From the NCBI GenBank assembly GCA_963737655.1, contig CAVTTN010000002.1:4864001-4928000 (forward strand): a stretch of DNA of 64,000 nt. The letters run 5' to 3'. The notes below the pieces were generated by a model that saw only the letters and a list, made by a program, of their open reading frames with translations, had not been told where the DNA came from and made no database searches. The position numbers and the translations under genes are program-made. Shown one piece after another: positions 11,762 through 31,821 of this stretch (positions are counted from its first letter, which is position 1; each line of letters starts with the position of its first letter). The DNA is from an uncultured Planctomycetota bacterium (GTDB taxonomy: Bacteria; Planctomycetota; Planctomycetia; Isosphaerales; Isosphaeraceae).

Positions 11762-11803
11762 CGATTGCCCCGTCACGACTCCCCGGCGAAAGGGAAGGCT
11801 CGG

Positions 11804-14500: not shown

Positions 14501-14536
14501 GTCGGCCCCACCAAGTTATCGGGGGGAGAAGAACGA

Positions 14537-14562
14537 GTAGGTCCGACTTCAGTCGGGCCTAC
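14537..14562 (+). repeat. REP, left flank of RAYT
   Basis: GTAG-GTCCGAC-TTCA-GTCGGGC-CTAC imperfect palindrome. Confidence 0.9.
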
Positions 14563-14650
14563 ACATCTCTTATCATCAATCCATGAAATTCCATATCGGG
14601 CAAATCATTTCAAGTTATATTAAATTTCCGAACGAATTGGAGGTCCCCCG

Positions 14651-15181
14651 ATGGCGGAAGGCGAGTATTCCCGGAGATTCGTAACCGAGCGCCCCCGATT
14701 CGGTCGTCATCATTTGCCTCACCATCAGATGGGCGGTAGTACGTACTTCGTCACGTTTCGCTCGGCCCGGGGCGTCTTGCCCGATCAGGCCCTGGCGGCC
14801 TTGAGAGATCACCTGAGCGAGGGGCATGGAGGCCTGTTCGACCTGGCGTTCGGCGTAATCATGCCCGATCACGTGCATCTCCTCTTGAGACCTCGGCCTC
14901 ATTCGCCCGGCCTCTGGCATGACTTGGGCGCGATCATGAAGTCGATCAAGGGGGGAAGCGCGAGGAAGATCAATCGAATCCTCGGGACCGAGAGGGCCGT
15001 CTGGCAGAAGGAATCCTTCGATCGGATCGTCCCCGACGATGCCGAGTTCGAGCAGAAATGGGATTACATGGTGAATAATCCGCGAAAAGCGGGGCTGGTC
15101 GAGGATTCGGAGGATGACCGCTTCTTCATCAGGCCGGTCGATGAGGGCAACTCGTCGAGGGAATCGGGGACGGTTTTGTAG
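14651..15181 (+). mobile_element. REP-associated tyrosine transposase (RAYT / TnpA-REP, Y1 HUH family)
   Basis: TYFVTF, HUH motif MPDHVHLL, WQKESFD, catalytic YMVNNP..AGLV; inverted GTAG REPs on both sides. Confidence 0.9.
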
Positions 15182-15203
15182 GCCCGACTGAAGTCGGACC
15201 TAC
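15178..15203 (-). repeat. REP, right flank of RAYT (inverted; supplies the RAYT TAG stop)
   Basis: Reverse complement of 14537-14562; TAG at 15179-15181. Confidence 0.9.
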
Positions 15204-15245
15204 TCGGCAAGCCACACAACAGAACATGTTCGAGGGAGACTTGCG

Positions 15246-16412
15246 ATGAGACGCGCCGTGATCGTCGAGGCCGTCCGCACGCCGATCGGGCGGGCCTCGG
15301 CCGACAAGGGATACTTTCGCGACGTCCGCGCCGACGAGCTCTCGGCCGGGCTCGATGAACGCGCTGATCGGGCGCACCGGGATCGACCCGAAGCTGATCG
15401 AGGACGTCCGCTGGGGCTGCGTCCAGCAGCAGGGGGAGCAGGGGTTCGACGTGGCCAGGATCGCCGCGCTGATCGCCGGGCTGCCGGTCGAGGTCGGCGG
15501 CGTGACGATCAACCGCAACTGCGCCAGCAGCCTCCAGGCGATCAACGACTCGGCCATGAGCATCGCCGCCGAGTGCGAAGACGTCCAGATCGCCGGGGGC
15601 GTCGAACACATGGACCACATCCCCATGTCCAAGGATTACAACCCGAGCCGCTCTTGTTCCGGAAGAACAGCGAGGCGATCAACCACATGGGCCTCACCGC
15701 CGAGTACCTGGCGATGAAGTACCGCATCCCCCGGCAGAAGCAGGACGAATTCGCGCTGAGGAGCCACCTCCTTGCGGCGAAGGCCACCGACGCCGGCCTG
15801 TTCCTCAACGAGATCGTGCCGACCTACGGCCGCGACGACGCCGGCCACAAGACGAAGCTGACCACCGACCAGTGCATCCGCCGCGATTCGTCGATCGAGG
15901 CCCTCGCCGCGCTGCCCCCGGCGTTCAACCCGGCCGGAGGCTCGGTCACGGCGGGCAACAGCTCGCCGATCAACGTCGGGGCCGCCGCCCTGCTCGTCAT
16001 GTCCGAGGACAAGGCCAGGGAGCTCGGCCTCGAACCGCTGGCCCGGGTGAGGTCGATGGCGGTGGCGGGCGTCGATCCCTCCGAGATGGGCATCGGCCCC
16101 GTCCCGGCCACCCACAAGGCCCTCAAGCGGGCCGGCCTCTCGCTCGACGACATCGGCTGCATCGAGCTCAACGAGGCGTTCGCGGTCCAGGTCCTCGCGG
16201 TGATGAAGCTGCTCGGCCTCAAGGAGAAGGACGAGCCCAGGATCAACGCCAGAGGGGGCTCGATCGCCATCGGCCACCCCCTGGGAGCCAGCGGAGCCCG
16301 GATCACCACCACGCTCCTCCACCGGATGCGCGACGAAGGCCAATCGCTCGGCCTGGCCACCATGTGCGTCGGCCAGGGGCAGGGCGTGGCGACGATCTTC
16401 GAGCGGGTGTGA
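15246..16412 (+). CDS. 3-ketoacyl-CoA thiolase (FadA-like), two compensating frameshifts (about 15354 and 15648)
   Basis: VRTPIGR; TINRNCASS (catalytic Cys) lies in the shifted frame 15355-15650; ELNEAFA, GGSIAIGHPLGASG, TMCVGQGQG. Confidence 0.9.
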   Translation: MRRAVIVEAVRTPIGRASADKGYFRDVRADELSAGLDERADRAHRDRPEADRGRPLGLRPAAGGAGVRRGQDRRADRRAAGRGRRRDDQPQLRQQPPGDQRLGHEHRRRVRRRPDRRGRRTHGPHPHVQGLQPEPLLFRKNSEAINHMGLTAEYLAMKYRIPRQKQDEFALRSHLLAAKATDAGLFLNEIVPTYGRDDAGHKTKLTTDQCIRRDSSIEALAALPPAFNPAGGSVTAGNSSPINVGAAALLVMSEDKARELGLEPLARVRSMAVAGVDPSEMGIGPVPATHKALKRAGLSLDDIGCIELNEAFAVQVLAVMKLLGLKEKDEPRINARGGSIAIGHPLGASGARITTTLLHRMRDEGQSLGLATMCVGQGQGVATIFERV

Positions 16413-16873
16413 CCCTCAAGACCAGGGACGCCCGCCAAGCCAGGTCGCGGGACGGAGCGGAGACCTCGAGGATCCGTTCCGCCCCCAGCCCTCTCCGCCT
16501 TCTCGGAACGCGCACTGCATACTACAAAACAGAAAAATTTTATAAAAATGAGCTTTTCTTAATATTCAAATGTTCTCTGGTGAGGAGATCACGGCCGCCC
16601 GCCGGCGCTCCGGCTTCGGGGAGGACGGCCCCATTGGTGGCCGAGCCGATCGCCGCGACCGGACTCCGCAGGCGGTCCCGGACTCCGATCGGGGCCTTGA
16701 AACCCTGGTCTCGGGGCTTCGCGATCGTCCGGATGGGGTGAAGAAGCGGCTTGTGTCGGGTTCGCGAGCGGGATAAGCTCTGAGATCGAGGGAGAAGGTC
16801 CGATCCCGATCGGGCTGCCATCCGGAGCGGAGGCACCCTCGGCGGTCGAGTCTCCCCGGGGGTTTCCTCTCGC

Positions 16874-17278
16874 GTGTCCACGTCCCGCAGCTCGGTCCGC
16901 TGGAACTCCCGGCTCGTCGGAGCGGCCTTCGCCCTCCTGACGCTGGCGAGCCTCGCGCCCGACGCGGCTCGAGCCGGTTGCGTGCATCCGGCGACCGAGG
17001 GGGCGGACCACCTGGACCTGCTCCGAGCCGCCGGTTCGCTGGGCGATGCGCCCGCGATGCCGAGACCGGACCCCGGGGGATGCACCGGGCCGTATTGCTC
17101 GAGCCGATCCGATCCGCCGCTCGGGCCTTCCGCCGCCTCGTCCCCGCGGGTGAGCCAGTGGGCGGTCCTGGACCCGCCGCCTCCTCGGATCGCCCGGGCT
17201 TCCTTCCCCCGCCGCCGAGATGGCGGCCGGGCGAAGCCGATCCTCGCGGCCGAAGCGATCTTTCATCCTCCGCGATGA
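16874..17278 (+). CDS. Small signal-peptide protein with Cys motifs and C-terminal HPPR (leader / DUF2946-like architecture)
   Basis: Hydrophobic signal ending ARA-GC; CVHP and CTGPYC; ends AIFHPPR-stop; precedes the DUF1559 cluster. Confidence 0.55.
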
Positions 17279-17691
17279 GCCTCGCCCGCGGTCTGGTCGC
17301 CGGATCGTCGCGATGACGGTGCGCACCCCCGGGGTGTCGCGCCATCGACCTCGAACCGCCGTTGATCCCTCGGCGAAGCCGCGCCCTGCGCCGGACTGGG
17401 AGGGCCCTCTCCCGATCCGGCCGGCGCCGCCCTTCCTCCGGCGCGATCGGCGACGGCCACGCAGGAAACGCGCCTCGATCCGGCCGCCGTCGCCGTGGGC
17501 GGGCCCGCGCCTTCCGGTTCCACTCCGACGTCGAGAGCCTGAGGTCTCGGGCCGGGCGCCTGCGCCCCGATCGCCCCGACCTCCCGGCCTGCCGGCCACG
17601 CCCCGACGGGTCGGCCGGGTCGCCGCTCCGTCCTCCGGGCGGCTGCGCGACGAGTCTCACTCATCCCTCCTTCTTCAAATGAGAGAATTCC

Positions 17692-18651
17692 ATGATACTT
17701 CGTGAATCGCGGCGCGGTTTCACCTTGATCGAGCTCCTCGTGGTGATCGCGATCATCGGCGTCCTGATCGCCCTGCTGCTGCCGGCCGTCCAGGCGGCTC
17801 GTGAGGCCGCCCGCCGGGCCCAGTGCACCAACAACTTGAAGCAGATCGGCCTGGCGGCGCACAACTATCACGACCGGGTCGGCGCCCTTCCCGGGGCCGA
17901 ACTGGCCCAGGGCGTGACGAGCTTCTCGGCCCTGTCGCACCTGCTCCCCGGCCTGGAGCTGGGGAATCAGTACAACGCCCTGAACTTCTCGCTGCCGAAC
18001 TCGGACCCCTCGAACGCGACCGTGGCGTTCGTGGCGGTCTCGTCGTTCATCTGCCCGTCGGACGTGAACAACTCGGCGCTGGCCTCGATCGGGGCGCAGA
18101 CCAACTACATGGCCGACATGGGGAGCTGGATCGTCTGGATGTCGGCGACCGGGCCGAACGTCGGCCTGATGCCGCCCAACGGCGTGTTCTACGGCAACAG
18201 CGCCACCCGGTTCGCCGACGTGATCGATGGGCTGTCCAACACGGGGTTCTTCAGCGAGCGGATCCTTGCCGACGGCAACAATGCGGTCGTCAGCCCGATC
18301 GCCGACGTGTTCTTCAGCCCGGCGGCGCCGACGACGATCGACGACGCCGTGACGTTGTGCCGGGCGTTGGACGTCAACAACCTCTCCAACCAGTTCCCGC
18401 TGTTCATGGGGGCGCCCTGGGTCAACGGCCAGCACGTGTTCCTCCACGTGACGGGCCCGAACACGCGGTCGTGCGGCTTCTTCGCCGCGCTCCGCGCCGT
18501 GATGCCCGCCAGCAGCCGCCACCCCGGGGGGGTGAACGTGCTGATGGGCGACGGCTCGGTGCGGTTCATCAAGGATGGGATCAGCGTCCCGACGTGGCGG
18601 GCCCTGGGCACCGTCGCCGGGGGCGAGATCGTCAACCAGGGCGAACTTTGA
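17692..18651 (+). CDS. DUF1559 (PulG-like) prepilin-type N-terminal cleavage/methylation protein
   Basis: [48 protein letters not shown]9-DG motif [14 protein letters not shown]. Confidence 0.95.
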
Positions 18652-18669
18652 GAACGGAGCCTGCCGCCC

Positions 18670-19068
18670 ATGACTCGCGCCCTCCGCACGGCGGTCGCCG
18701 CGACCCTGGCCCTGGCCGCGCTCGTCGCGGCCGGGTGCTCGGAGCGGATCGCCGCCACCCCGCTGGACTCCACCCGGGCGATGGACTCCCTGAAGGCCGC
18801 GCTCGAGGCGTGGAAGAAGGGGGAGCCCGCCGACGCCCTGAAGAGCGGGTCCCCGCCGATCGTCGCCCAGGACCTCGACTGGCAGGGCGGGGCGACCCTC
18901 GTCGATTACGCGATCGACGGCCCGGGGGACAGGGTGGATTCCAACCTGAAGGTCCCGGTGAAGCTGACGCTCAAGGCCAGGTCCAGGTCCGGCAAGGACG
19001 TGACCAAGGCCGTGAAGTACCTCGTGACCACCAGCCCATCCATCACGGTCTTCCGGGCCTTCCCCTGA
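18670..19068 (+). CDS. Hypothetical lipoprotein (DUF1559 partner)
   Basis: Lipobox LVAAG-C; directly follows the DUF1559 gene. Confidence 0.75.
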
Positions 19069-19110
19069 AGGCCGGGGCCCGTCGATCTCCACGAAAAGGA
19101 AGGTTCGTTC

Positions 19111-20499
19111 ATGAATCCGTCCCGATCCCTCGCCGCCCTGGCCGTGGCCTGCGGGCTGGCCTCTCCGTCGGTCGCCTCGGCCGAGGGCACCCTGCTCGCG
19201 CCGCTCTCGAATGAGGACGCCTGGAAGGCGCTCCCCCCGGCGGAGGCCGGCGCCGGCCTCCCTTTGCCGTCCTGGGCCCGGATGCTCGCCCGGTCCCTGC
19301 CCCGGACCACGGCGGCCCTGCTCCAACTGGACCTGGCGCAGCGATCGAAGAACCCGCTCGACCCGAAGCTCCGCGCGGCGATGCGCCACGTCGCCGCCCG
19401 CGCCAACGGCTCCTCCTATGGCGAGGCCTGCGCCGAGGCCGACGCCCGCCGCGCCGGCCTCGCGGCTTCGGCGATCGCGGCCCTCGCCCGGGGCGACCTC
19501 TCGGGCTTCTCGGCCGAGGACCGGGCCGCCCTGGAGTTCGCCCGCAAGATGACCGTCGAGTCGTCGAAGGTCACCGACGCCGAGTTCGCGGCCCTGGTCC
19601 GGGGGTTCGGCGAGAAGAAGGCCGCCGCGATGGTCTTGACGATGGCCTACGCGAACTTCCAGGACCGCCTCCTGATCGTCCTGGGCGCCCCCGTCGAGGA
19701 GGGCGGGCCGCCGCCCCCGGTCGAGGTGGCATTCCGGCCCGAGGTGCTCGCGTCGCGGAAGGCGCCCGCCTCCCCGCCGACGATCTCCGACCTGCCCCGG
19801 CCCTCGGGCAAGGACGTCGTCGAGGACGACGACGGCTGGGAGGCCGTCTCCTACGCCCGGCTCCAGGAGAAGCTGGAGGAGCAGAGGAGCAAGCCGACCC
19901 GGCTCCGCGTCCCCGCGATCGACGAGGTCAAGTCCGGCCTGCCCCCGGGCGCCTCGATGCAGGGCGAGCGGGTCGTCTGGAGCCTCGTCGCCTTCGGCTA
20001 TTGCCCGGAGCTGGCCGTCCCGTGGGAGGCCGTGATGTGGATCAACGGCGAGGAGAACGGCCGGCGATTCGACCGCGCGTTCGGCCTCGGCCTGTTCTGG
20101 ATCGTCACCCGGACGATCGACTGCCCGTACTGCATGGGGCACGTCGAGATGAACTGGGAGGTCATCGGCATGAAGCCCGAGCAGATCGCCGAGAGGAGCC
20201 GGGCCCTGGCCGGCAAGGATTGGTCGAGCTTCCCGCCGGAGGAGCAGAGGGCGTTCGCCCTGGCCCGCAAGCTCACGGCGACCCCGGCGAAGGTCACCCG
20301 CGACGAGATCGACGGCGCGATCAAGGACTTCGGCCGCGACCCGGCGGTCAGCCTCCTGACCTACGTCTGCCGGTGCAACTACATGGTGCGCGTCTCCAAC
20401 GGCTTCCAGCTCTCGCTGGAGCGGGACAACGTCTTCTTCGACTACTACAAGGTGAAGCCGCCGACTCCGGCCGGGCCGGGCGGCGAATCGCGGCGATGA
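19111..20499 (+). CDS. Exported AhpD / carboxymuconolactone-decarboxylase-like protein (two lobes; CxxC = CPYC)
   Basis: Signal peptide; [47 protein letters not shown]. Confidence 0.8.
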
Positions 20500-20567
20500 G
20501 ATCCGACGCCGGGGCGGGCCGTCGAATCGCCGGGGCCCGCCCCGGCCCTGACCAACCGGAGCGATCC

Positions 20568-21785
20568 ATGAAGGCGTTCTCGCGACGACTGGGCTGGGCG
20601 ATCGCGCTGGCGGCGCTCTCGGGGGCGGCGCCGGCCTTCGCCGGCGAAGGACCGACCGCGGACTCGCTCTCCGTGGGCACGGCCAGGGCGCTCGACGCCC
20701 TCTGGCCCGGCCACCCCGAGGCGATCGACATGCTGGCCGACATCCTCATCAAGGGCGAGGAGATGGGGGGGGCCGACGGCTGGTTCCGCAAGGCCCCCTC
20801 GCGGACCCGATTCGACTGGGGCGCGACCCGCGCGGCGCTGGATCGGGACGGCGACGGCTCGGTCACCCGGGCCGAGTTCGGGGGCCCCGACGCCGACTTC
20901 GCCCGGCTCGACCGCGACCGGGACGGCCGGCTCTCGGCGGCCGACTTCGACTTCTCGGCGCGCCCCTCCGGGCCGCCGGCCGGCTCGATCCTCCTGGTCC
21001 GGGCCGACCGCGACGGCGACGGCCGTCTGACCCGCGACGAGCTCGACCGGTTCTTCCGGGACAACGACCGCGAGGGCCTGGGCTTCCTCTCGCTGGCCGA
21101 CCTCCAGGAGGCCCTCTCGACCGCCCCGGGGCCGGGCGCCTCCTCGTCGATCCCGACGCGGTCGGTCCTGCTCAAGAGCTTCTTCCGGGGCGAGCTCGGC
21201 GCCTGGCCGCCCGGCCCCCCGCTGGACGCCCCGGCCCCCGACTTCACCCTCAAGGCGGCCGAGGGGGGCGAGGCCGTCTCGCTGTCGAAGCTCGTGGGCC
21301 CGAAGCCGATCGTCCTGGTCTTCGGCAACTTCACGTGCGGGCCGTTCCGGGGGCAGGCCGGCAACCTCCAGAAGCTCCACGCCCGCTACAAGGACCGGGC
21401 GGAGTTCCTGATGGTCTACGTCCGCGAGCCCCACCCCACCGACGGCTGGAGGATGGAGAATAACGACCGCGTGGGGGTGGCGGTCCGCCAGCCCCGCGAC
21501 GCGTCCGAGCGGCTCGAGGTCGCCCGGTCGTGCGGCCGGACCCTCAAGCTCGGCTTCCCGATGCTCGTGGACACGATGGACGACGCGGTCAACAATGCCT
21601 ACAGCGGCATCCCCAGCCGGCTCTACCTGATCGACCGGGGCGGCAAGATCGCCTTCAAAAATGGCCGGGGGCCGTTCGGATTCCGGCTCGCCGAGCTGGA
21701 GCAATCGCTCCTGCTGCTCCTCCGCCAGGAGGCGACCGCCGCCGGACCTCCGGCCGACGGCGATCGACCGCCCGGCGGGCGATGA
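20568..21785 (+). CDS. Exported EF-hand + iodothyronine-deiodinase-like thioredoxin-fold protein
   Basis: Signal peptide; [83 protein letters not shown]. Confidence 0.85.
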
Positions 21786-21836
21786 GGATCGGATCGCCGT
21801 CCCCTTCCCGACCCCAACCCCTCGCGGACCCCCCTC

Positions 21837-24378
21837 ATGATGCATCCCCGATGGTCCCTCGCCGGCCTCCGCCTCGGGCTCGCCCTCCTGCTGGTCGCGC
21901 CCTGGACCTGGGCCGGGCCAGGATCTGAGGACCTCGCCGATCCGGAAGGCCGAGACGCCCGCCCAGGCGGCCCGCAGGGCGCTGGACGAGTCCTGGCCCG
22001 ACCACCCCGAATGGCTCGACCAGTACACCGACATCCTCAACGACGCCGGCAGCGGCCCCAACGACGGCTGGTTCCGCCGGGCCCGGTCGCAGACCCGGTT
22101 CGGCTGGGGCGCCGTCGCCGGCCGGCTCGACGGCGACCACGATGGCGCGATCTCCCGCAAGGAATTCCCGGGCACCGACCGCGACTTCGCCCGGCTCGAT
22201 CGCGACCGCGACGGGGCCTTGACCCGCGCCGACTTCGACTTCCCGGCCAACAGCGCCCTGAACGCATCGCCGGGGTCGCTCCTGATGTACGTCCTGGACG
22301 ACGACGGCAACGGCAAGGTCACCCGCGAGGAGATGGAGGCGTTCTTCAAGAAGGCCGACGGCGGCGACCTCGGCTTCCTCTCGCTGAACGACCTCCAGGA
22401 GAACTTCACCACCCGCCCGAAGACATCGGGCCTGCCCGACCCGGGCCCCCCGTCGAAGGAGACCCTCATCCGGGGGCTGTTCCGCCGGGAGATCGGCTCC
22501 CTCGAACCCGGCCCGTCGCTCGACCAGAAGGCGCCGGACTTCACCCTCAAGACCGTCGACGGCAAGGGGGAAATCACCCTGTCGAAGCTGGTGGGGCCGA
22601 AGCCGGTGGTCCTGGTCTTCGGCAACTTCACGTGCGGGCCGTTCCGCAGCCAGGCCGGGAACGTGGAGAAGCTCTACCAGCTCTACAAGGACCGGGCGGA
22701 GTTCGTGATGGTCTACGTCCGCGAGGCCCACCCCACCGACGGCTGGAGGATGGACAGCAACGACGCGGTGGGGATCACCACCGCCCAGCCGAGGACGTAC
22801 GAGGAGCGGGTGGCGCTGGCCCGGACCTGCGGCAAGAGGCTCTCGCTCGGGTTCCCGATGCTCGTCGATGGGATCGACGACCCGGTGGGCAACGCCTACA
22901 GCGGGATGCCCAGCCGGCTCTACCTGATCGACCGCGACGGCAAGGTGGCCTACAAGAGCGGCCGGGGCCCCTACGGCTTCCTGCCGGCCGAGCTGGAGCA
23001 TTCGCTGGCCCTCCTGCTCCAGCCGTCGGCCGAGCCCTCGGGCCATGCCGAGGCTCCCGGGCCGACCCCCCCCGTCCAGCTCGCCCGTCCGGTCGAAGGG
23101 CCCGGCCCGGTGAAGCTCCTGAGCAGCGAGGAGGCCTGGAGGCGCCTGCCCCGGGTCGTCGAGGGCGGCCATCCTCCGCTGCCCAACTGGGCCCGGGCCA
23201 CGGCCCACGCCCTGCCCCAGACCACCGCGGCGATGCTGGAGCTGGACCGGCTCCATCGGACCGAGAGCCCGCTCGGCCCGGCCCTCCGCGGCAAGATGCG
23301 CTGGGTCGCGGCCGACACCAACCGCTGCGCCTACGGCCGGGCCACGGCCGAGGCCGACCTCCTCCGCGCCGGGATCGACCGGGCCGAGATCGACGCCCTG
23401 AAGGCGGGCCCCCGGCTCTGGCCGGAGGCCGAGCGAACGGCCCTGGAGTTCGCCTCGAGGATGAGCCGCGACGCCTCCGAGGTCACCGATGGCCAGGTCG
23501 CCGCCCTGATCCGCGCCCACGGCGAGGAGAAGGTCGTGGCGATGGTCCTCCTCCTGGCCGCCGCCAACTTCCAGGACCGCCTGGTCATGGGCCTGGGGAC
23601 CCCTCTGGAAACGGACGGGCCGATGGCGCCGGTCGCGGTCCGATTCGCCAAGGACGGCCCCCCGCCGCTCGTCCCGAACCGAGGCAAGCCCGAAGACTGG
23701 CGGGGCCCGCCCGTCCCCGACCGCGTGGACGATCCCGAATGGGCCGTCCTGGACTTCGACGACCTCCGCAAGGGCCTGGACTCGCAGAAGAACAACGCCG
23801 GGCGGATCCGCGTGCCCTCGCCCGAGGAGGCCGTCGCCCACCTCCCGGCCGACTATCCGAAGCCGAAGTCGCCGATCCGGATCAAGTGGAGCCTGGTCGT
23901 CTTCGGCTACCAGCCGAGGCTGGCGGCGGCGTGGTCGTCCGTCATGAGGGCCTTCGACTCCGATGCCCACCTCGACGACGTCTTCGGCGAGAGCCTCTTC
24001 TGGGTCGTCACGAAGTCCATCCACTGCTTCTACTGAATGGGCCACTCCGAGATGGTGCTCGCGGTCGCGGGCCTGGACGCGGAAGCCCTGGACAAACGGA
24101 CCCGGACCCTCGCCTCGGGCGACTGGTCCACCCTGCCGCCTCGCGATCGCGCCGCCTTCTTCTTCGCGAAGACGCTGGCGCAGGCGCCCTGGGAGATCCG
24201 CGACGCCGATCGGCAACTCCTGATCGAACACTTCGGCCCGGAGAGGGCCGTCGACGTGATCTGGCAGTCGAGCTGGTGCAACTACATGACCCGGGTCGCC
24301 GACGCGTTCCAGCTCCCCCTGGAGCGAGAGAACGTGTTCGCCCCCCCACCGGCGCCCAACCCAGGGGCCAAGCCCTGA
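21837..24378 (+). CDS. Exported EF-hand + deiodinase-like + AhpD-like fusion, probable selenoprotein (Sec at TGA 24034-24036; frameshift near 21910)
   Basis: Signal peptide from 21837; homology to both upstream genes; in-frame TGA aligns to the second Cys of the paralog CxxC and homology continues in frame to 24378. Confidence 0.75.
24054..24074 (+). promoter_or_regulatory. Candidate bacterial SECIS hairpin
   Basis: GG-[bulged T]-GCTCGC-loop GGTC-GCGGGC-CT; the loop starts 27 nt after the TGA. Confidence 0.6.
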
Positions 24379-24555
24379 CTCGCCCCGGCGGTCCCGGAAA
24401 CGGGGTCAGGAACAGGAATCACGATTCCGAGACGTTCCCGACCCCTTCCCTCGCCGCCCCGAATTCGTCTGTCCGTTCCGGTCCGTTTCGTCTAGGATTC
24501 GCGGCGCGTCCGGCGGCCGATTTTCGGAGACCTGGTCTCGGAGAGCCTTCCTCCG

Positions 24556-25704
24556 ATGAGGCGATCCGTTGCGGGGAAGCTCCCCTGGGGTTTGCTGGGC
24601 TCCGCCGTCCTGATCGTCCTGATCGAGCGAGGGTTCGAGCGACATCGGCTCTTGCTGTCCGACGCCGGCTCGGTGAACTGGCGATCCTCGGCGTATGCGA
24701 CGGGCCATCAGGCGGTCCGCGCCGAGGTCCTCGCGTTCGGCGACAGCTTGACGAAATTCGGGGTCCAGCCTCGGGTGATCGAGGCGGAGACCGGCCTGTC
24801 GGCCTACAACCTCGCCGGGGTCGGGGCGCCTCCGGCGTTCTCGTATTTCCTGCTCGGCCGGGCGATCCGGGCCGGCGCCCGGCCGAAGCTGATAGTCCTG
24901 AACGTCGCGCCCCATCACACCTATTCCTCGCCCTCCTCGCACATCCGGCCGTTCAGCGAGTTCCTCGCGATCTCCGAGGCCCTGGATTACTCGTGGAACG
25001 CCCGCGATCCCTCGCTGTTCCTCGGCCTGATGGTCCCTCGATTCCTCCCGTCCGCGCGGTCCCGCCTGGAGATCCGCAACACCCTCAGGGAGGCGCTCGC
25101 GGGCGACGGACCGCCTCGCCTGCCGGTCCCCGAGGCGATGCTCCGCAACTGGAACGCCAACCTCGGCGCGTTCGCGATGCCGCCGACGCCCCATTCGCCC
25201 GGGGATGCCCGCGCCGCCATGCTCGGGCTCCTGCCCAGCCCCCTCGTCGCCTGGACGGGCGACCGGACCTTCCAGGGCGACTACCTCGATCGGTTCCTCG
25301 ACCTGGCCGAGTCCCACGGCATCCCGGTCTTCCTGGTCGTCCCGCCGATGCACCCCGACTACGAGGCAAGAGAGATCGCGCTGGGCAACCCGCCGGTCCT
25401 GGACGCGTTCCTCCGGATGACCCGGGATCGCCACCCCCGGATCACGATCCTCGACGGCCGTCGCAAGGGTTACGACGCCTCGCTCTTCTGCGAGGACATC
25501 GTCCACCTGAACGTGCGAGGCGCCTCGGCCTTCACCCGCGACGTCTCCGGCGCCATCTCGCGTTGGAGAGCCGGCGGCGTGAAGCCCGGCACCACCGTCG
25601 CCTTGCCTGCGTATCGGGACGGCCGCCCGCAACCCGGGATCGAGAGTTTCCCCGAATCGCTCGCGGCGATTTCCGGCAGGGTTAGGAAAACGCCTCGTCG
25701 ATGA
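24556..25704 (+). CDS. Membrane-anchored SGNH/GDSL-like protein (DUF1574-like)
   Basis: N-terminal TM; VLAFGDS, AYNLAG, DIVHLN (DxxH). Confidence 0.65.
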   Translation: MRRSVAGKLPWGLLGSAVLIVLIERGFERHRLLLSDAGSVNWRSSAYATGHQAVRAEVLAFGDSLTKFGVQPRVIEAETGLSAYNLAGVGAPPAFSYFLLGRAIRAGARPKLIVLNVAPHHTYSSPSSHIRPFSEFLAISEALDYSWNARDPSLFLGLMVPRFLPSARSRLEIRNTLREALAGDGPPRLPVPEAMLRNWNANLGAFAMPPTPHSPGDARAAMLGLLPSPLVAWTGDRTFQGDYLDRFLDLAESHGIPVFLVVPPMHPDYEAREIALGNPPVLDAFLRMTRDRHPRITILDGRRKGYDASLFCEDIVHLNVRGASAFTRDVSGAISRWRAGGVKPGTTVALPAYRDGRPQPGIESFPESLAAISGRVRKTPRR

Positions 25705-25921
25705 GCGGAGACGCCAGCATCGCTTCCTCGCTCACGCCCCGAGGGGAAATCGCCGGATCGCCCGGGGAGGGCCATCCCACCGGGCGATCCGGCCTCGTCG
25801 CGGAGGGCCGCTGGAGGCCAGGACCCAGGCTCGGCAACGAGGCCACCCGCGACGACCTCGCCAGACCCTTGTCGATGATCACGACGTCCCCTGGTCGGGA
25901 CGCCGGCATGCAACGGCCTCG

Positions 25922-26644
25922 TCAGGCCCCGAGGGGGGACTCGCGTCGCCGCCGGGCGAGCTTGACGAGTCCGAACACGCCGGTGCCCAGCAGGACCAGG
26001 CCGGAGGGCTCGGGCACCGCGTTGGCCGACGAGGAGACCGAGCCGAACGCCGTCCCCACCCCGAAATGGACCAGGGTCAAGTGGGAACCCGCCTGGATGG
26101 GGGTCGAGATCGGCGCGTTCATATCGGCGCGGTCCGCGGCGTATTGCCGGATGAACTCGAATTCCTGGCCGATGGCCGTGTTATCGTCCGCGCCGTTGAG
26201 GAGGACGGCTAGCGCTTCGCTCTCGGTGACCTGATGGCCCTGATACATCAGGTCGGAGAAGACCTGTTCGAAGGTCATTCCCACCTGGTCGGCCCCGCCG
26301 TTGACGAAGCCCGCGACGACCGATTGGGTCATCCCGCCCTGGCCGTCCGGGGCCGAATAAACGCCCATGAGGTTGAACGTGGTGTAGATGGTCGGGTCGT
26401 TGTTGAACGGGTCGGTGATCCCCAAATCGAAGCTGGACGGCGTCGACAACGAGAAATCGAAGCCACCGGTCGTCGTGTAGCCATCGGGATTCTTCCAGGT
26501 GATCGGGTCGATATGCAGGGACGCGCCGGGGTCCGCCGCATCGATGGTGAAGCCGAAGTCGAGGTAGGCGTCGGCCCGGGTCGCCGACGCCGCGGAGAGG
26601 GCCATCCCGAGCGTGAGGATGCCGATTCGCAACGCCTTGCTCAT
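25922..26644 (-). CDS. PEP-CTERM sorting-domain protein
   Basis: Signal peptide; C-terminal VPEPSGLVLLGTGVFGLVKLARRRR. Confidence 0.88.
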   Translation of the reverse strand: MSKALRIGILTLGMALSAASATRADAYLDFGFTIDAADPGASLHIDPITWKNPDGYTTTGGFDFSLSTPSSFDLGITDPFNNDPTIYTTFNLMGVYSAPDGQGGMTQSVVAGFVNGGADQVGMTFEQVFSDLMYQGHQVTESEALAVLLNGADDNTAIGQEFEFIRQYAADRADMNAPISTPIQAGSHLTLVHFGVGTAFGSVSSSANAVPEPSGLVLLGTGVFGLVKLARRRRESPLGA

Positions 26645-26831
26645 CAAGGGAGCTCCGGTGAGGGGCCGCCACGTCTCGGAACGGCCGCCGAAGCGGGGCC
26701 GCCGATCGTGAGGGCGGAGAGGAATTGAAGCACTTGATCGCAGCGCTCGCATCCCCCAGAATTGGGGGGTCGCCCGCTCCTCGCGACGGCCGCGGCCGGG
26801 CCTGGGCGCCGCCGTCCGAACCGGAAGCTCG

Positions 26832-27632
26832 ATGATGGGCCGTTCCCAACTGTTGCGCCTCCGCGACATCCGCTCGGCATTCCGGCTGGTGGGCGAGGCT
26901 CGCGACATGGGGGCGGACCCCTCGGCGTGGCGGTCCCACGTGATCGGGGAAATGGCCCGCCTGGTCGGCGGGTCCGTGGCGATGACCCTGGACCTCCACG
27001 AGTTCCTCCCCGGCCGTGTCCCCCGATGGGTCGCGCCGGCGGACCTCGGCTGGGAGAGCGACCTCGAACGGCGCCGCTTCCTGGATTACCTGGGATCCGA
27101 CCTCCCGAAGGAAGATCCCTCGGCCGTCGCCTGGCTCGCCCTCCTGACGCGGAGGAGCATCGCCACGGCCACCCGTCGCGAGATGATCGCCGATCGCGAC
27201 TGGTATGGCTCGCCCATCGTCTCCGAAGGCCGGAGGTCGTCTCGGATCGACGACCCGCTCATCTCCTGCGCCCTGATCGGCGGGCCGGGCCGGGTCCACG
27301 GCTTCCAGGTCTACCGGCCCTGGGGGGCCCGCGGCTTCGAGCGTCGCGAGCGGAACCTCGTCCGCTTGATCCACCTCGAGCTGCTCCGCCACCTCGACCG
27401 GGGGCCGATGGACGACGGCCTGGCCCCCCACCTCCGACGGGTCCTGCGGCCCCTGCTCGGCGGCCTGACCACGAAGGAGATCGCGCGAACGTTGAGCCTG
27501 AGCGCCCACACCGTGGACGGCTACATCAAGGCCATCTACGCCCATTATCAAGTCGGGAGCCGGGCCCGCCTCATCGCCCTGGCCCCCGATCGTCCACCGC
27601 CGGGCCGGCTGAGCCTCCCCCAGGGTTTCTAG
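26832..27632 (+). CDS. LuxR-family HTH transcriptional regulator
   Basis: GLTTKEIARTLSLSAHTVDGYIKAIYAHYQVGSR at the C-terminus; GAF-like N-terminal region. Confidence 0.85.
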   Translation: MMGRSQLLRLRDIRSAFRLVGEARDMGADPSAWRSHVIGEMARLVGGSVAMTLDLHEFLPGRVPRWVAPADLGWESDLERRRFLDYLGSDLPKEDPSAVAWLALLTRRSIATATRREMIADRDWYGSPIVSEGRRSSRIDDPLISCALIGGPGRVHGFQVYRPWGARGFERRERNLVRLIHLELLRHLDRGPMDDGLAPHLRRVLRPLLGGLTTKEIARTLSLSAHTVDGYIKAIYAHYQVGSRARLIALAPDRPPPGRLSLPQGF

Positions 27633-27712
27633 GGCGAGGCGAGTCAAGTACCCACCGACGGAACCGCGACATCCCCCTTGACGATCAATAACCCGCCGGC
27701 TATGATTCGGCC

Positions 27713-28036
27713 ATGAACGCCGCGCCGGACGAGATCTTCAAGGCCCTGGGTGACCCGACGCGACGCGCCCTCTTCGAGCGCCTCGTCAGCGACGGGGAGC
27801 AGACGGTCCGCGCGCTGACCGACCATGCCGGGGTCTCCCAACCGGCGGTCTCCAAGCACCTGGGCGTCCTGAAGACCGTCGGGCTGGTCCGCGACCGCCC
27901 GGAGGGCCGTCAGGTCCACTACAGCGCGGACCCGCAGGGCCTGGCCCCCCTGGTCCACTGGATGAAGCTTTACGGAGCCTTCTGGACGGAACGCGTCGAT
28001 CGCCTCGAACAACTCCTGGAGAGGATGGACGAATGA
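27713..28036 (+). CDS. ArsR/SmtB family regulator
   Basis: FKALGDPTRR, VSQPAVSKHLGVLK..GLV. Confidence 0.9.
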   Translation: MNAAPDEIFKALGDPTRRALFERLVSDGEQTVRALTDHAGVSQPAVSKHLGVLKTVGLVRDRPEGRQVHYSADPQGLAPLVHWMKLYGAFWTERVDRLEQLLERMDE

Positions 28037-28479
28037 ATCCCATCGACAAGACCGACCCGTCGCAAACCGAGGCCCTGGCCTTCGAGTTCGACCTGCATCA
28101 TCCGCCGGAGAAGGTCTGGCGGGCGCTCACCGATCCCGCGCTGCTGACCGAGTGGCTCCTGCCCGTCGTCGGGCTCGAGCTCGAACCGGGGGCGGCGTTC
28201 ACGCTCAAGACCCAGCCGTATCCCGGTTGGGACGGCACGGTGAACTGCCGATTCCTCGAGATCGACGCGGAGAGGAAGCTCAGCTACTCCTGGGTCGTCG
28301 GCGACATGGGGCTGGATACCGTGGTGACGTTCACGCTCGCGCCCACGGCGTCGGGCACGCGGTTGTCCCTCGTGCAGTCGGGCTTCAAGCCGGAGCAGAA
28401 GCAGAACTTCGGCGGCGCCCGCTACGGCTGGAAGCTGATGGGCGGCAAGCTCATCGACCTGCTCGCGAAGACCCCGTGA
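28033..28479 (+). CDS. SRPBCC (AHSA1-like) domain protein
   Basis: PPEKVWRALTDP..L.EW, LSYSW, GTRLSL.QSGF, YGW; overlaps the ArsR stop (ATGA). Confidence 0.88.
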   Translation: MNPIDKTDPSQTEALAFEFDLHHPPEKVWRALTDPALLTEWLLPVVGLELEPGAAFTLKTQPYPGWDGTVNCRFLEIDAERKLSYSWVVGDMGLDTVVTFTLAPTASGTRLSLVQSGFKPEQKQNFGGARYGWKLMGGKLIDLLAKTP

Positions 28480-28558
28480 TCCGGTCGAGGCGCGGGGCCG
28501 CAGGCGGTCCCGCGCGAGTCCGCGAGCCGCTTCGGCCCACATTTCCAAGGAGGTTTCC

Positions 28559-28801
28559 TTGATCGGGAACGAATGGATGCGGCAGGCCCACCGCTGGGTG
28601 TCGTTGGCCTTCACGGCGGGCGTCATCGTCAACATCATCGCCCTGAGGCAGAAGGCGCCGGCCGCCTGGGTCGGCCTCCTGGCGCTGATCCCCCTCCTCG
28701 TGCTCCTCGTCACCGGCCTGTACCTGTTCGTGCAACCGTATACCGCCAGGAGGCGAAGCGGGCGACGTCCCCAGGCGTCACAGGCCATCGAACCCCGATG
28801 A
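28559..28801 (+). CDS. Small two-TM membrane protein
   Basis: AGGAGG RBS before TTG; WMRQAHRWVSLAFT...LLVTGLYLFVQPY. Confidence 0.7.
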   Translation: MIGNEWMRQAHRWVSLAFTAGVIVNIIALRQKAPAAWVGLLALIPLLVLLVTGLYLFVQPYTARRRSGRRPQASQAIEPR

Positions 28802-29410: not shown

Positions 29411-30124
29411 TGTTTTCTGATTTGAGAATCCGTTCGGTTTTGACCCGCAACGATCGACTTATAAGAGACTTGTGTCGATCGAATTTTTGAGCTTCACCGC
29501 CGACTTTTGCCGGAAATGGTGGATCGCTCGGGGGTGCGCGTGAGGGGTCGTTCGGAAGGGGCGGTGGGCGTGGTGGCGGGATTGGGTGATCGGGGGTGGG
29601 GGCGGCCCTCGATGATGGGATCACGGGGGCGGCGGCGTTGGGGCTCGGGTCCGATTTGCGAGGGGGAGGGTGGCCGTGATCGATGGGGATGGATCGGGTC
29701 GGGATGTCGGCTCGGGGGCCGGGGCGACATCCTCTTGGGGCCGGGCCAGTCCCGGAACCATTCGCGATATTTTATAATCTCGATGTGATTCGGGCCATTC
29801 GGATCAAGGACGTCGAGAGAGAACTTTTCCATGATTGCTTGAAGGATCTCACGACCTTCGACTTATTTGGCCCGGATTGCCGGATTGCCGCGGTCTTCCG
29901 AAATCGTCCCTTTCTTGTGAGGCGTGAGGGTCCTGGCTTTCCCAAGGCGAGCCGCGGGCGTCCTTTGCGACGATTTCTCGATCCGGGAGGGGTCTCGGGG
30001 TCCGTCTGGTGTTGGCAGTGGCTGGACGGCGACGGTCCGATCGGTTGGAATGAGGCCGCGATCGACCCGGGTTCGTGGCGAACGAGCGGGGCGGGGTCTT
30101 GCCGATCCGCCGGGAGAGGGTGAC

Positions 30125-31821
30125 GTGGCCTCCGAGAACCTTCCCGCCCTCTTCCGGGCGACCTGCGATCGCCTCGGCCCTCGGGCGGCGGTTCGGTTCC
30201 GGCGCGATGGCCTGTATCGTGACCTTTCCTGGGACGATTACCGCCGACGGGTGGATGAGGCGGCGGCGGGCCTGGTGGCCCTGGGGGTGAAGCCCGGGGA
30301 TCGGGTGGCGATCCTTTCGGAGAACCGGGTCGAGTGGCTGGAGGCCGATCTGGCGGTGCTCTCGGCCGGGGCGGTGGGCGTCCCCTTGCATGCCCCGCTG
30401 TCCGCCGGGCAGGTCGCCTATCAGGTGGCCCATAGCGGGGCCGTCGGGGCGATCGTGAGCGGGCCGGGTCAGGCGGCGAAGGTCCTGGAGGCGAGGGATC
30501 AGGCCCCGGAGCTCCGCTGGATCGTCGCGTTCGACGCGATCGGGGCGGGCGATCCGGGGATTCGCGCCCTTTCGTGGCTCGGATTGGGCGGCGAAGGCCG
30601 GCGGGCGGGGCCGGCGGCGAGGTTGGACGTGGATCGGAGGATCTCGGCGCTCTCTCGCGGCGACCTGGCCTCGATCCTCTATACGAGCGGCACCACCGGC
30701 CCTCCCAAGGGCGTGATGCTGTCTCATGGGAACTTCCTCTCGAACGCCGAGACCACGGCGGTCATCTCCGGGTCGGTGCCGACCGACGTGGTGTTGAGCT
30801 GGCTGCCCTATAGCCATGTTTATGCCCGCACGTGCGACCTCTACGTGTTCCTGGTGGATGGTGCCACGCTGGCCCTGGCCGAGTCGGTCGATGCCCTGAT
30901 GGTCCATCTGGCCGAGGTCCAGCCGTCGTGCATGTCGTCGGTGCCGAGGTTCTATGAGAAGGTCTGGGGCAACCTCCAGGGGGTCCCCGAGGCGGCCCGG
31001 CCGAGGGCGCTTTGGGGGATTTTCGGGCCGAATGTCCGCCATTTCTCCTCGGGGGCGCCCCGTTGCCGAGGCCGGTGGCCGAGGGGTTCCACGCCTGCGG
31101 GATGACCTTGATGGAAGGCTACGGGATGACCGAGTCGTCGCCCGTGATCAGCTTCAACACGCCGGGGGCCGTGAAGGTGGGCTCGGTCGGCCGGCCGATC
31201 CCGGGCGTGGAGGTCCGGATCGCCGAGGATGGCGAGATCCTCACCCGGGGGCCTCACGTGATGATGGGTTACTGGCGAGATCCCGACGCCACGGCGAGGA
31301 CGATCGTCGACGGCTGGCTGCACACCGGGGACGTGGGCCATCTGGATCCCGACGGCTACCTGTTCATCACCGATCGCAAGAAGGACATCCTCATCACCTC
31401 GGGCGGCAAGAACGTCGCCCCGAGCGAGCTGGAACGGCTGATCGTGGCCGATCCGACGTTCGATCAGGCGGTGGTCTTCGGGGACGGCCGGCCGTTCGTC
31501 GGGGCGCTGGTCGTGCCGACGGCCGAGGCGATGGAGGCCGAAGCGGCCCGCCTCGGCGCCCCCCTCGATCGTGACGGCGAATTCCTCGCCCCGGGGCCGA
31601 TCGTCGATGCCTTCTTCGCCCGGGTCTCGACGGCGATGCAGGCCGTGAGCGGGCCGGAGCGGGTGAAGGCGATCCTCGTCCTCGGGCGGCCCCTGAGCGT
31701 CGATCGCGAGGAGGTCACGGCCACGCTCAAGGTCCGCCGGCGGCACGTCCTGGCCGAATTCGCCGACCGGATCGAGGCGCTTTACCAGAGCAAGGCCGCC
31801 TCTGCGGCCCTGGACGTCTAG
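30125..31821 (+). CDS. Long-chain fatty acid-CoA ligase (frameshift in the G run near 31052)
   Basis: YTSGTTGPPKGVMLSHGN; EGYGMTESSP; WLHTGDVG; DRKKDILITSGGKNVAP. Confidence 0.9.

Follow-up and report, generated by a model that had tools for sequence, protein, structure and literature searches.

A leader-headed DUF1559 cassette of Planctomycetia with a candidate selenocysteine-containing exported redox module

A stretch of 64,000 nucleotides (nt) from an uncultured planctomycete of the family Isosphaeraceae (assembly GCA_963737655.1, contig CAVTTN010000002.1, positions 4,864,001 to 4,928,000), called the window below, carries a cassette in which a short leader open reading frame (ORF) is followed by genes for a DUF1559 prepilin-type protein, a lipoprotein, an AhpD-like protein, a deiodinase-like protein and a fusion of the last two domain types (Table 1). 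A preliminary description made from the letters alone had proposed six co-oriented genes with export signals here, and this was confirmed: six plus-strand ORFs run in the same direction at 16874-24378, and all have export-type N-termini (assessed by eye, with a hydropathy check on leaders only). The DUF1559, AhpD-like and EF-hand plus deiodinase-like identities were likewise borne out, by PF07596, by NF038285 and by fold matches. The first ORF, listed earlier as a plain exported gene, instead looks like a regulatory leader. The gaps between the genes 3′ of the DUF1559 gene are 18, 42, 68 and 51 nt, and no terminator-like site was found in 16400-24600, where the scan for promoters and terminators was uninformative. 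In what follows, G000 is the source genome, other G numbers are genomes of relatives and L numbers are loci.

Table 1. Features of the cassette and their positions in the window
Feature	Position	Strand	Details
Leader ORF, 134 aa, candidate regulatory upstream ORF of CruR/CutF-like type	16874-17278	+	signal peptide, Cys motif, C-terminal IFHPPR
Untranslated spacer between leader and DUF1559 gene, 413 nt	17279-17691	+	110-658 nt in 76 relatives
DUF1559 prepilin-type protein	17692-18651	+	PF07596 match, prepilin motif
Lipoprotein, 132 aa, lipobox Cys23	18670-19068	+	no Pfam family; predicted partner of DUF1559 protein
Tandem AhpD-like protein, exported, Cys type, 462 aa	19111-20499	+	CPYCMGH at 20122-20142
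EF-hand + deiodinase-like thioredoxin-fold protein, exported, 405 aa	20568-21785	+	NF038285; GNFTCGPF at 21324-21347, Cys type
Fusion gene: signal peptide, EF-hands, deiodinase-like, then tandem AhpD-like	21837-24378	+	frame break near 21945
Deiodinase-like catalytic motif of the fusion, Cys type	22621-22644	+	
In-frame TGA read as selenocysteine (Sec; CxxU)	24034-24036	+	CFY-U-MGH
Candidate bacterial selenocysteine insertion sequence (SECIS)	24057-24072	+	6-bp stem, GGUC loop; loop 26 nt past UGA

Predicted recoding in the fusion gene and conservation of the cassette

The last gene had been described as a fusion of the two genes before it. The fusion architecture is real and the domain types are the same, but its halves belong to other paralogue types than the window neighbours (57% and 43% identity) and are not copies of them; nor is it a single open frame, as the signal-peptide frame is separated from the body by the break and the frame is interrupted again by the TGA. 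This TGA, in CFY-TGA-MGH, aligns with the Cys of CPYCMGH in the neighbouring paralogue, with homology on both sides. The hairpin that follows was compared between 44 distinct forms with UGA and 72 with Cys, all drawn from 77 AhpD loci: the six-pair hairpin 24-39 nt from the UGA is intact in all 44 UGA forms, whereas all six pairs are present in none of the 72 Cys forms, and the GGUC apical loop occurs in 43 of the 44. Third-codon conservation at the hairpin is 0.98 in UGA forms, against 0.66 upstream and 0.56 in Cys forms. The folding energy alone was not unusual (z -1.3), and significance came only from this comparative test.

The genes selA, selB and selD are present in the source genome, selD itself with an in-frame UGA, and a tRNA-Sec was found in five of five relatives. 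Among five genomes tested, a full SelA occurs together with CFY-UGA in G115, and a SelA match is absent from G118 (98% complete) and G117 (74%), where the orthologues read CFYC. This comparison of sequences strongly supports the fusion as a selenoprotein whose UGA is recoded to Sec. The family it adds scores above the cut-off of no NCBIfam model, and gene callers cut its members short where the UGA stands: among the 150 best-matching relatives in an unrelated protein library, 52 stop exactly at CxY. A SelW/Rdx-like gene with CxxU lies directly 5′ of selD (G000:C2 3221300-3222400).

The fusion protein is matched in at least one domain by 101 of 121 genomes of the host's family, and named relatives come from Isosphaeraceae, Gemmataceae, Pirellulales and Planctomycetaceae. 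Conservation of the cassette extends across Planctomycetia. Of 77 AhpD anchors, 50 have a deiodinase-like gene within 3 kb and 37 a DUF1559 gene within 6 kb, while 34 are preceded by a leader and 31 are accompanied by the lipoprotein gene (20 loci served to train the neighbourhood profiles, and some of these share contigs with the 77). The synteny on which the preliminary description depended was recovered: 45 of the 47 fully flanked AhpD loci carry at least one of a DUF1559 gene, a deiodinase-like gene and a leader. One to three AhpD subtypes occur per cassette (CFY, CNY, CPY, CQY/CTY), and deiodinase–AhpD fusions recur in both orders and with several of these subtypes, which argues for a pathway shared by both enzymes.

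The leader ORF as a candidate sensor

The leader is the best clue to the function of the cassette. It is built from a signal peptide, Cys36 immediately after the AxA site, the motif CTGPYC (17081-17098), Trp96 and the C-terminal IFHPPR (17258-17275), which lies 55 residues past Cys75. C36, C70, G72, C75, P82, P132 and P133 are invariant in 20 of 20 diverse members at about 30% identity, and 19 of these 20 have a hydrophobic segment ahead of their first Cys (hydropathy check). In a search that allowed 50-62 residues, the distance from the second Cys of CxGxxC to [H/R/D/E]PP was 54-58 residues in all 126 distinct leaders, among which synonymous codons vary freely. No Pfam family covers the leader, a useful score having been obtained for 0 of 20 members; the nearest named Atlas clusters, at 0.88-0.90, are DUF2946, DUF6660, CzcI and DUF6769, which serve as leads only. 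Members of the leader family turned up in 68 of 151 Planctomycetia genomes; a sample drawn from the whole phylum yielded 6 genomes of 151 with a leader, every one of them from the class Planctomycetia.

Among 61 leaders in the 77 loci, the next gene encodes a DUF1559 protein in 36, an AhpD-like protein in 12, a deiodinase-like protein in 2 and something else in 8, with the locus edge reached in 3; a cassette gene lies within 900 nt 3′ of the leader in 50 of the 61, and all three leaders of the source genome head such cassettes. In 40 hand-picked regions downstream of leaders, a DUF1559 gene comes first in 21, and 18 contain an AhpD-like gene. A scan of 75 of the 95 unlabelled ORFs of these regions revealed NMT1-type ABC binding proteins in 5 regions, FG-GAP/ASPIC proteins in 8 and multiheme c554-like proteins in 3. 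The binding proteins have conserved Cys residues, including a CC pair, and a weak match to SaoX (NF040735, E 5.8e-15, below cut-off), for which binding of metal adducts has been proposed, according to the available part of bioRxiv 10.1101/2022.07.06.499078.

Two characterised systems resemble the leader in build. CruR of Bordetella, a DUF2946 protein that senses cytoplasmic Cu, has RAPP at a distance of 45 residues from CxxC (PMC9426467), its arrest having been demonstrated in vitro (PMC12992588), and CutF of Rhodobacter, a sensor of periplasmic Cu, combines a signal peptide with CxxxC and a Pro-rich end (PMC9973294), as far as the available portions of these papers go. The leader shares with them its place as first gene of the operon, the signal peptide, a Cys motif, a C-terminal Pro-Pro at a conserved distance and a long untranslated spacer (PMC9426467, PMC9973294, in the same portions). 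The published rule for CutF-like proteins, as given in the part of PMC9973294 at hand, is a length of <150 aa, a signal peptide, PP in the last 15 residues and a co-oriented gene within 1000 nt; at 134 aa, with its signal peptide, near-terminal PP and co-oriented downstream gene, the leader has this build. Unlike CruR, it has a spacing of 55 and not 45 residues and a third Cys at the mature N-terminus; it heads DUF1559/AhpD cassettes, whereas CruR and CutF head TonB receptors or Cu oxidases, and among the samples searched it was seen only in the class Planctomycetia. By analogy, we infer that it may be a CruR/CutF-like upstream ORF of a new kind, a cis-acting nascent Cys sensor. The spacers of 110-658 nt to the cassettes are long for the unmasking of a ribosome-binding site, and the fixed spacing within the leader family points to a sensing site beyond the Sec translocon.

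Since the characterised leaders of like build sense metals (PMC9426467, PMC9973294, in the parts available) and the present one has three invariant Cys, the whole cassette might serve the acquisition or handling of soft metals or metalloids (Cu, Hg, As, Se), with Cys and Sec binding and releasing the ion rather than passing through a catalytic redox cycle. The SaoX-like Cys-rich binding proteins, the Cys-rich ASPIC/UnbV proteins and one selD in leader-headed regions would fit this, as would the arsenite methyltransferase/AhpD selenoprotein family catalogued in the available text of PMC13188914. However, canonical metal pumps, chaperones and reductases were not seen to recur among the neighbour clusters and scanned leader-downstream ORFs, and both CxxU and the thioredoxin fold are typical of redox catalysis, which makes pure metal handling improbable.

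Several further arrangements of the leader were observed. Exported TPR/FG-GAP/ASPIC-UnbV proteins that carry a Cys cluster, and multiheme cytochrome c554-like genes, are found behind it as well (L066, L070, L061, L178, L197, L201, L207, L208, L213). In L179 the region downstream of the leader contains selD, and in L189 a single-domain AhpD is followed by O-acetylhomoserine sulfhydrylase and MetX; these are single cases, hinting at sulfur and selenium metabolism. The second leader cassette of the source genome (L038, G000:C2:5980954-5984045) has an AhpD-like start joined in frame to a deiodinase-like thioredoxin part, a gene that probably arose by deletion; next come ABC-transporter-like ORFs and one for a small protein of NQxxIL repeats. 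Such small NQxxIL heptad-repeat proteins, without a Pfam match, were also seen in L118 (9539-10066), L116 and L211, and in 7 of the 77 loci they recur beside the Cys-rich ABC importer. The third leader cassette (L039, G000:C2:5852000-5855900) encodes a distant tandem AhpD in which the layout of the window proteins is reversed: its live CTYCMGH belongs to the N-terminal half. Elsewhere in the source genome there is a canonical-looking CruR-type ORF with CxxC and C-terminal RAPP (C2:1395087-1395425, minus strand).

The two enzymes and the DUF1559–lipoprotein pair

Both window copies of the deiodinase-like protein lie well above the NF038285 cut-off of 250, at 450.7 and 487.9 bits, and the protein combines EF-hands with PF00837. 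The deiodinase-like part was modelled at a predicted local distance difference test (pLDDT) value of 73; its top fold matches were Dio3 (Z 16.4) and Dio2 (Z 16.3), followed by ResA and AhpE types, and Dio3 and Dio2 were also the top sequence matches (E 6e-25). With NF038285 and Dio2/Dio3 it shares a thioredoxin fold with the deiodinase insertion and the elements T-C/U, Y-x-x-E-x-H-P-x-D-G-W and G-R-G-P, whereas EF-hands and a signal peptide replace the membrane anchor of Dio2/Dio3 and a second, invariant Cys is found in helix alpha3. Of the six relay residues described for deiodinases (Ser, Thr, Tyr, Glu, His, His, in the part of PMC11592359 available), Thr, Tyr, Glu and one His are kept, but Ser is replaced by Asn and the third His by Pro, and the full proton relay of Dio1-3 is not present in the window proteins; the Trp and the Arg clamp are also retained. 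A Sec form, GSFT-U-GP, exists in relatives, often beside a Sec-type AhpD, whereas both window copies are of the Cys type.

The EF-hands are canonical and, if the protein is exported, have an extracytoplasmic position, in which Ca2+ probably occupies them at all times. The Ca2+ modulation proposed earlier finds no support beyond the presence of these motifs. Lanthanide binding of the lanmodulin type was considered and rejected: the matches were far below cut-off, and the loops lack the Pro at position 2 that lanmodulin EF loops have.

The AhpD-like domains had only sub-cut-off family matches (43.3 against 81.8 bits for TIGR01926; 29.7 against 175 bits for NF041238, with 9 of 24 members matching at E<=0.01) and were confirmed by fold. 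The two halves of the chain are homologous and the CxxC/U-His centre is kept in one only, the C-terminal half in the window proteins; in the separate, Cys-type protein the N-terminal half has no Cys. For the Sec-type AhpD part (model pLDDT 90) the best fold match was human Sestrin2 (Z 26.4, root-mean-square deviation 3.3 Å over 296 aligned residues, 16% identity), while single AhpD domains, including the debrominase Bmp8, tied at Z 16-17. Sestrin2 has two AhpD-like halves in one chain as well, but the catalytic centre here is on the C-terminal half; no Pfam match to the Sestrin (PA26) sequence family was obtained at E<=0.1. The match is one of fold and may reflect no more than an independent duplication of the AhpD dimer. 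With the AhpD/CMD proteins (Bmp8, PA0269, TIGR01926, NF041238) the window proteins share the fold and the CxxC/CxxU-His centre, and the CFYU tetrapeptide of the fusion is common to NF041238 (CFYUT selenoprotein); in contrast, they are exported, far below the family cut-offs, and tandem two-domain proteins with one dead half. In L060 (652-1824) a further AhpD-like protein without CxxC precedes a pair of Sec-type deiodinase and Sec-type AhpD, an arrangement seen in 4 of the 77 loci.

In mycobacterial AhpC-AhpD, a peroxiredoxin is paired with AhpD, and PxxxTxxC is the peroxidatic motif. The window likewise pairs a peroxiredoxin-like thioredoxin-fold protein with an AhpD-like one, as do the Prx-like and AhpD-like selenoprotein operons of marine metagenomes (PMC13188914, available text); unlike these systems, the pair is exported, headed by a leader and linked to DUF1559, and the partner is without PxxxTxxC.

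The preliminary description had also proposed dehalogenation, and these structures allow a reading in which the AhpD-like protein, acting like Bmp8, and the deiodinase-like protein, acting like Dio2/3, remove I, Br or Cl from electron-rich haloaromatics at the cell surface, with the paralogues serving different substrates. The analogues themselves stand: Bmp8 is a relative of the AhpD-like protein (E 8.1e-13, Z 16.6-16.7), Dio3 and Dio2 lead both searches with the deiodinase-like part, the four relay residues and the clamp are kept, and the Sec form occurs beside AhpD-U. The AhpD fold is present with CxxCxxH as in Bmp8, and in its CxYCxxH spacing the centre agrees with Bmp8 (CMYCKSH) and not with PA0269 or DrAhpD, which have CxxCxxxH. 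The reaction itself is less well borne out, as Bmp8 lies within 1 Z unit of several non-dehalogenase AhpD relatives, peroxidase relatives among them, and the relay has lost its third His and its Ser. Bmp8 reportedly has an Asn on its C-terminal helix as partner of the His; its LNRWN helix reads MTRVA or MVRVS in the window proteins and the Asn is not retained. Debromination by Bmp8 is Cys-based (PMC5577590, available part). Among the 32 neighbour clusters that recur in at least 3 of the 77 loci, some of whose representatives are antisense shadows, there is no halogenase, dehalogenase or aromatic catabolism family, and the leader type suggests metals or oxidants. Dehalogenation is therefore regarded as rather unlikely.

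The DUF1559 protein matches PF07596 at E 1.6e-48 and has the prepilin motif and an H-X9-DG C-terminus. The subfamily linked to the cassette is marked by two additional invariant cysteines, Cys223 and Cys261, and by a G-x-PW-x-x-G motif, a pair of features present in 2 of the 37 pilin-start DUF1559 ORFs of the source genome, both of them headed by a leader. The lipoprotein belongs to no Pfam family and gave weak NTF2-like leads. Complex modelling, named as a check in the preliminary description, gave a score of 0.77 for DUF1559 (residues 33-319) with the lipoprotein (24-132), against 0.11 for the best control; at least 83% of the contacts coincide between runs, with a partner pLDDT of at least 84. 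Of 157 solved pairs, 116 attained the mark set for the pair score, as did 2 of 215 mismatched ones; these counts apply only roughly to our own alignments. These models support a predicted heterodimer of the two proteins.

The extra invariant Cys, and the ResA/DsbE-type proteins that come close behind in the fold search (Z 14-15), could also mean that the enzymes are housekeeping disulfide reductases or isomerases that mature the DUF1559 cysteines and other exported Cys-rich proteins. Yet AhpD and deiodinase-like genes are often seen apart from DUF1559, which was not found near in 20 of the 47 fully flanked AhpD loci, and several AhpD subtypes per locus and the use of Sec better suit a dedicated chemistry, so that a maturation role appears very improbable.

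A proposed relay and its weighing

The reading favored here, to which we assign a probability of roughly 0.55, is that the cassette encodes an exported thiol/selenol reductase relay of the periplasm or cell surface, fed by a DsbD-type carrier and gated by the Cys-sensing leader, that acts on thiol-reactive species. The exported thiol/selenol redox module of the preliminary description is supported, and so, by the recurrent fusions, is a coupling of the two enzymes. Recoding, the architecture with one live and one dead AhpD half, the coupling of the enzymes and the dedicated DUF1559 subfamily are strongly supported by sequence comparison; sensing, electron flow and substrate capture are what we infer from these. 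The leader would be threaded into SecYEG while the ribosome arrives at [H/R]PPR, the fixed 55-residue ruler presumably setting the Cys cluster just past the ribosome tunnel and the translocon. By analogy with the known leaders, stalling, and hence expression of the downstream genes, would change when these Cys bind a soft metal(loid) ion or become oxidised. Electrons would flow from a DsbD-type membrane carrier to the deiodinase-like protein and the CxxU/CxxC centre of AhpD, in either order, and on to the thiol-reactive substrate, which might be a peroxide or other oxidant, an oxidised sulfur or selenium adduct, or a metal(loid)-thiol adduct; a DsbD transmembrane domain was found in the source genome. 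The catalytic Cys of the deiodinase-like protein and its alpha3 Cys would act like an atypical 2-Cys peroxiredoxin. In the least supported step, the DUF1559–lipoprotein heterodimer would capture or present the substrate at the envelope.

Several findings weigh against this relay. The leader, DUF1559 and lipoprotein genes occur together in only 16 of the 47 fully flanked loci, and the cassette is therefore modular, not fixed. The leader has CxGxxC instead of the CxxC of CruR or the CxxxC of CutF, ends in HPPR and not in RAPP, and DUF2946 (PF11162) is matched by 0 of 20 members. The spacer C-skew of 0.085 (n=76) is close to the 0.063 of the control (n=34), so that Rho-type control is not supported. 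No classic Cu, Zn, Hg or As genes are among the 32 recurrent clusters, except for a P-type ATPase in 3 of the 77 loci. In the source genome, which is 87.7% complete, a tRNA-Sec was not found by Rfam, pattern scans, BLAST or a profile from five relatives (a relaxed ARAGORN search was uninformative), and the fusion gene carries its frame break in the present assembly.

Because of the frame break and the tRNA-Sec that was not found, the fusion in the source genome could be a decaying pseudogene or two ORFs, and the second leader cassette of this genome looks internally deleted as well; this would concern one copy and is compatible with the readings made for the family. Decay is nevertheless very doubtful, as the SECIS is intact, and selD and the adjoining SelW-like gene also contain an in-frame UGA. 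The assembly seems indel-prone, since the C-terminal motif is missing from the reading frame of 3 of 32 pilin-start DUF1559 ORFs of the genome, and a thiolase-like (15246-16412) and an acyl-CoA ligase-like gene (29924-31821) elsewhere in the window each seem split over two frames. Fusions in G076, G077 and G117 are intact in a single frame and open through the region of the break, which, together with the broken DUF1559 frames, suggests that the break near the 5′ end may be an assembly error.

Parts of this picture were already known: deiodinase-like and AhpD-like bacterial selenoproteins have been catalogued (PMC1088965, PMC13188914, available portions), NF038285 covers the EF-hand deiodinase-like protein, and CruR and CutF define the leader type. 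In the full-text literature searched, no description was found of a tandem exported AhpD selenoprotein, of a CxGxxC-55-HPPR leader or of this DUF1559 assembly, although the lists of CutF-like proteins in the supplement of PMC9973294, a source available in part and with some pilin-type neighbours listed, may hold these leaders. The main text of BSepDB, in the part available, does not mention planctomycetes (PMC13326102). DUF1559 is among the largest planctomycete gene families, with 68 paralogues in Planctopirus (PMC10632474), and is called uncharacterised in the available parts of PMC10632474, PMC2754498 and PMC4807772; no reaction has been assigned to the deiodinase-like proteins of bacteria since their discovery, going by the corresponding part of PMC1088965. 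Through the cassette, a single definable DUF1559 subfamily becomes connected with a predicted partner, two redox enzymes and a testable regulator. A bolder extension, in which the new translocon-coupled leaders with their three Cys, 55-residue ruler and [H/R]PPR run a Planctomycetia-wide regulon whose surface selenoenzymes, Sestrin-like tandem AhpD proteins and ancestral bacterial deiodinases, reductively dehalogenate natural organohalogens or process metalloid adducts with DUF1559–lipoprotein receptors, is unlikely; if true, such a dehalogenation or metalloid regulon would provide the first function for bacterial deiodinase homologues and for a DUF1559 subfamily.

Downstream of the cassette, at 24556-28800, the window contains a DUF1574-like gene (at 24556), a PEP-CTERM protein gene and a LuxR-type regulator gene, with ArsR-like and SRPBCC-like ORFs, recognised by eye, 3′ of the regulator; the genes of this region are not among the recurrent neighbours of the cassette in relatives. 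Upstream, at 14534-15206, a gene for a 176-aa Y1 transposase-like protein (PF01797) lies between perfect 30-nt inverted palindromic repeats of the GTAG type, a further copy of which is found at 11801. This locus resembles that of a repetitive extragenic palindrome (REP)-associated tyrosine transposase and is located inside a cluster of fatty-acid oxidation genes.

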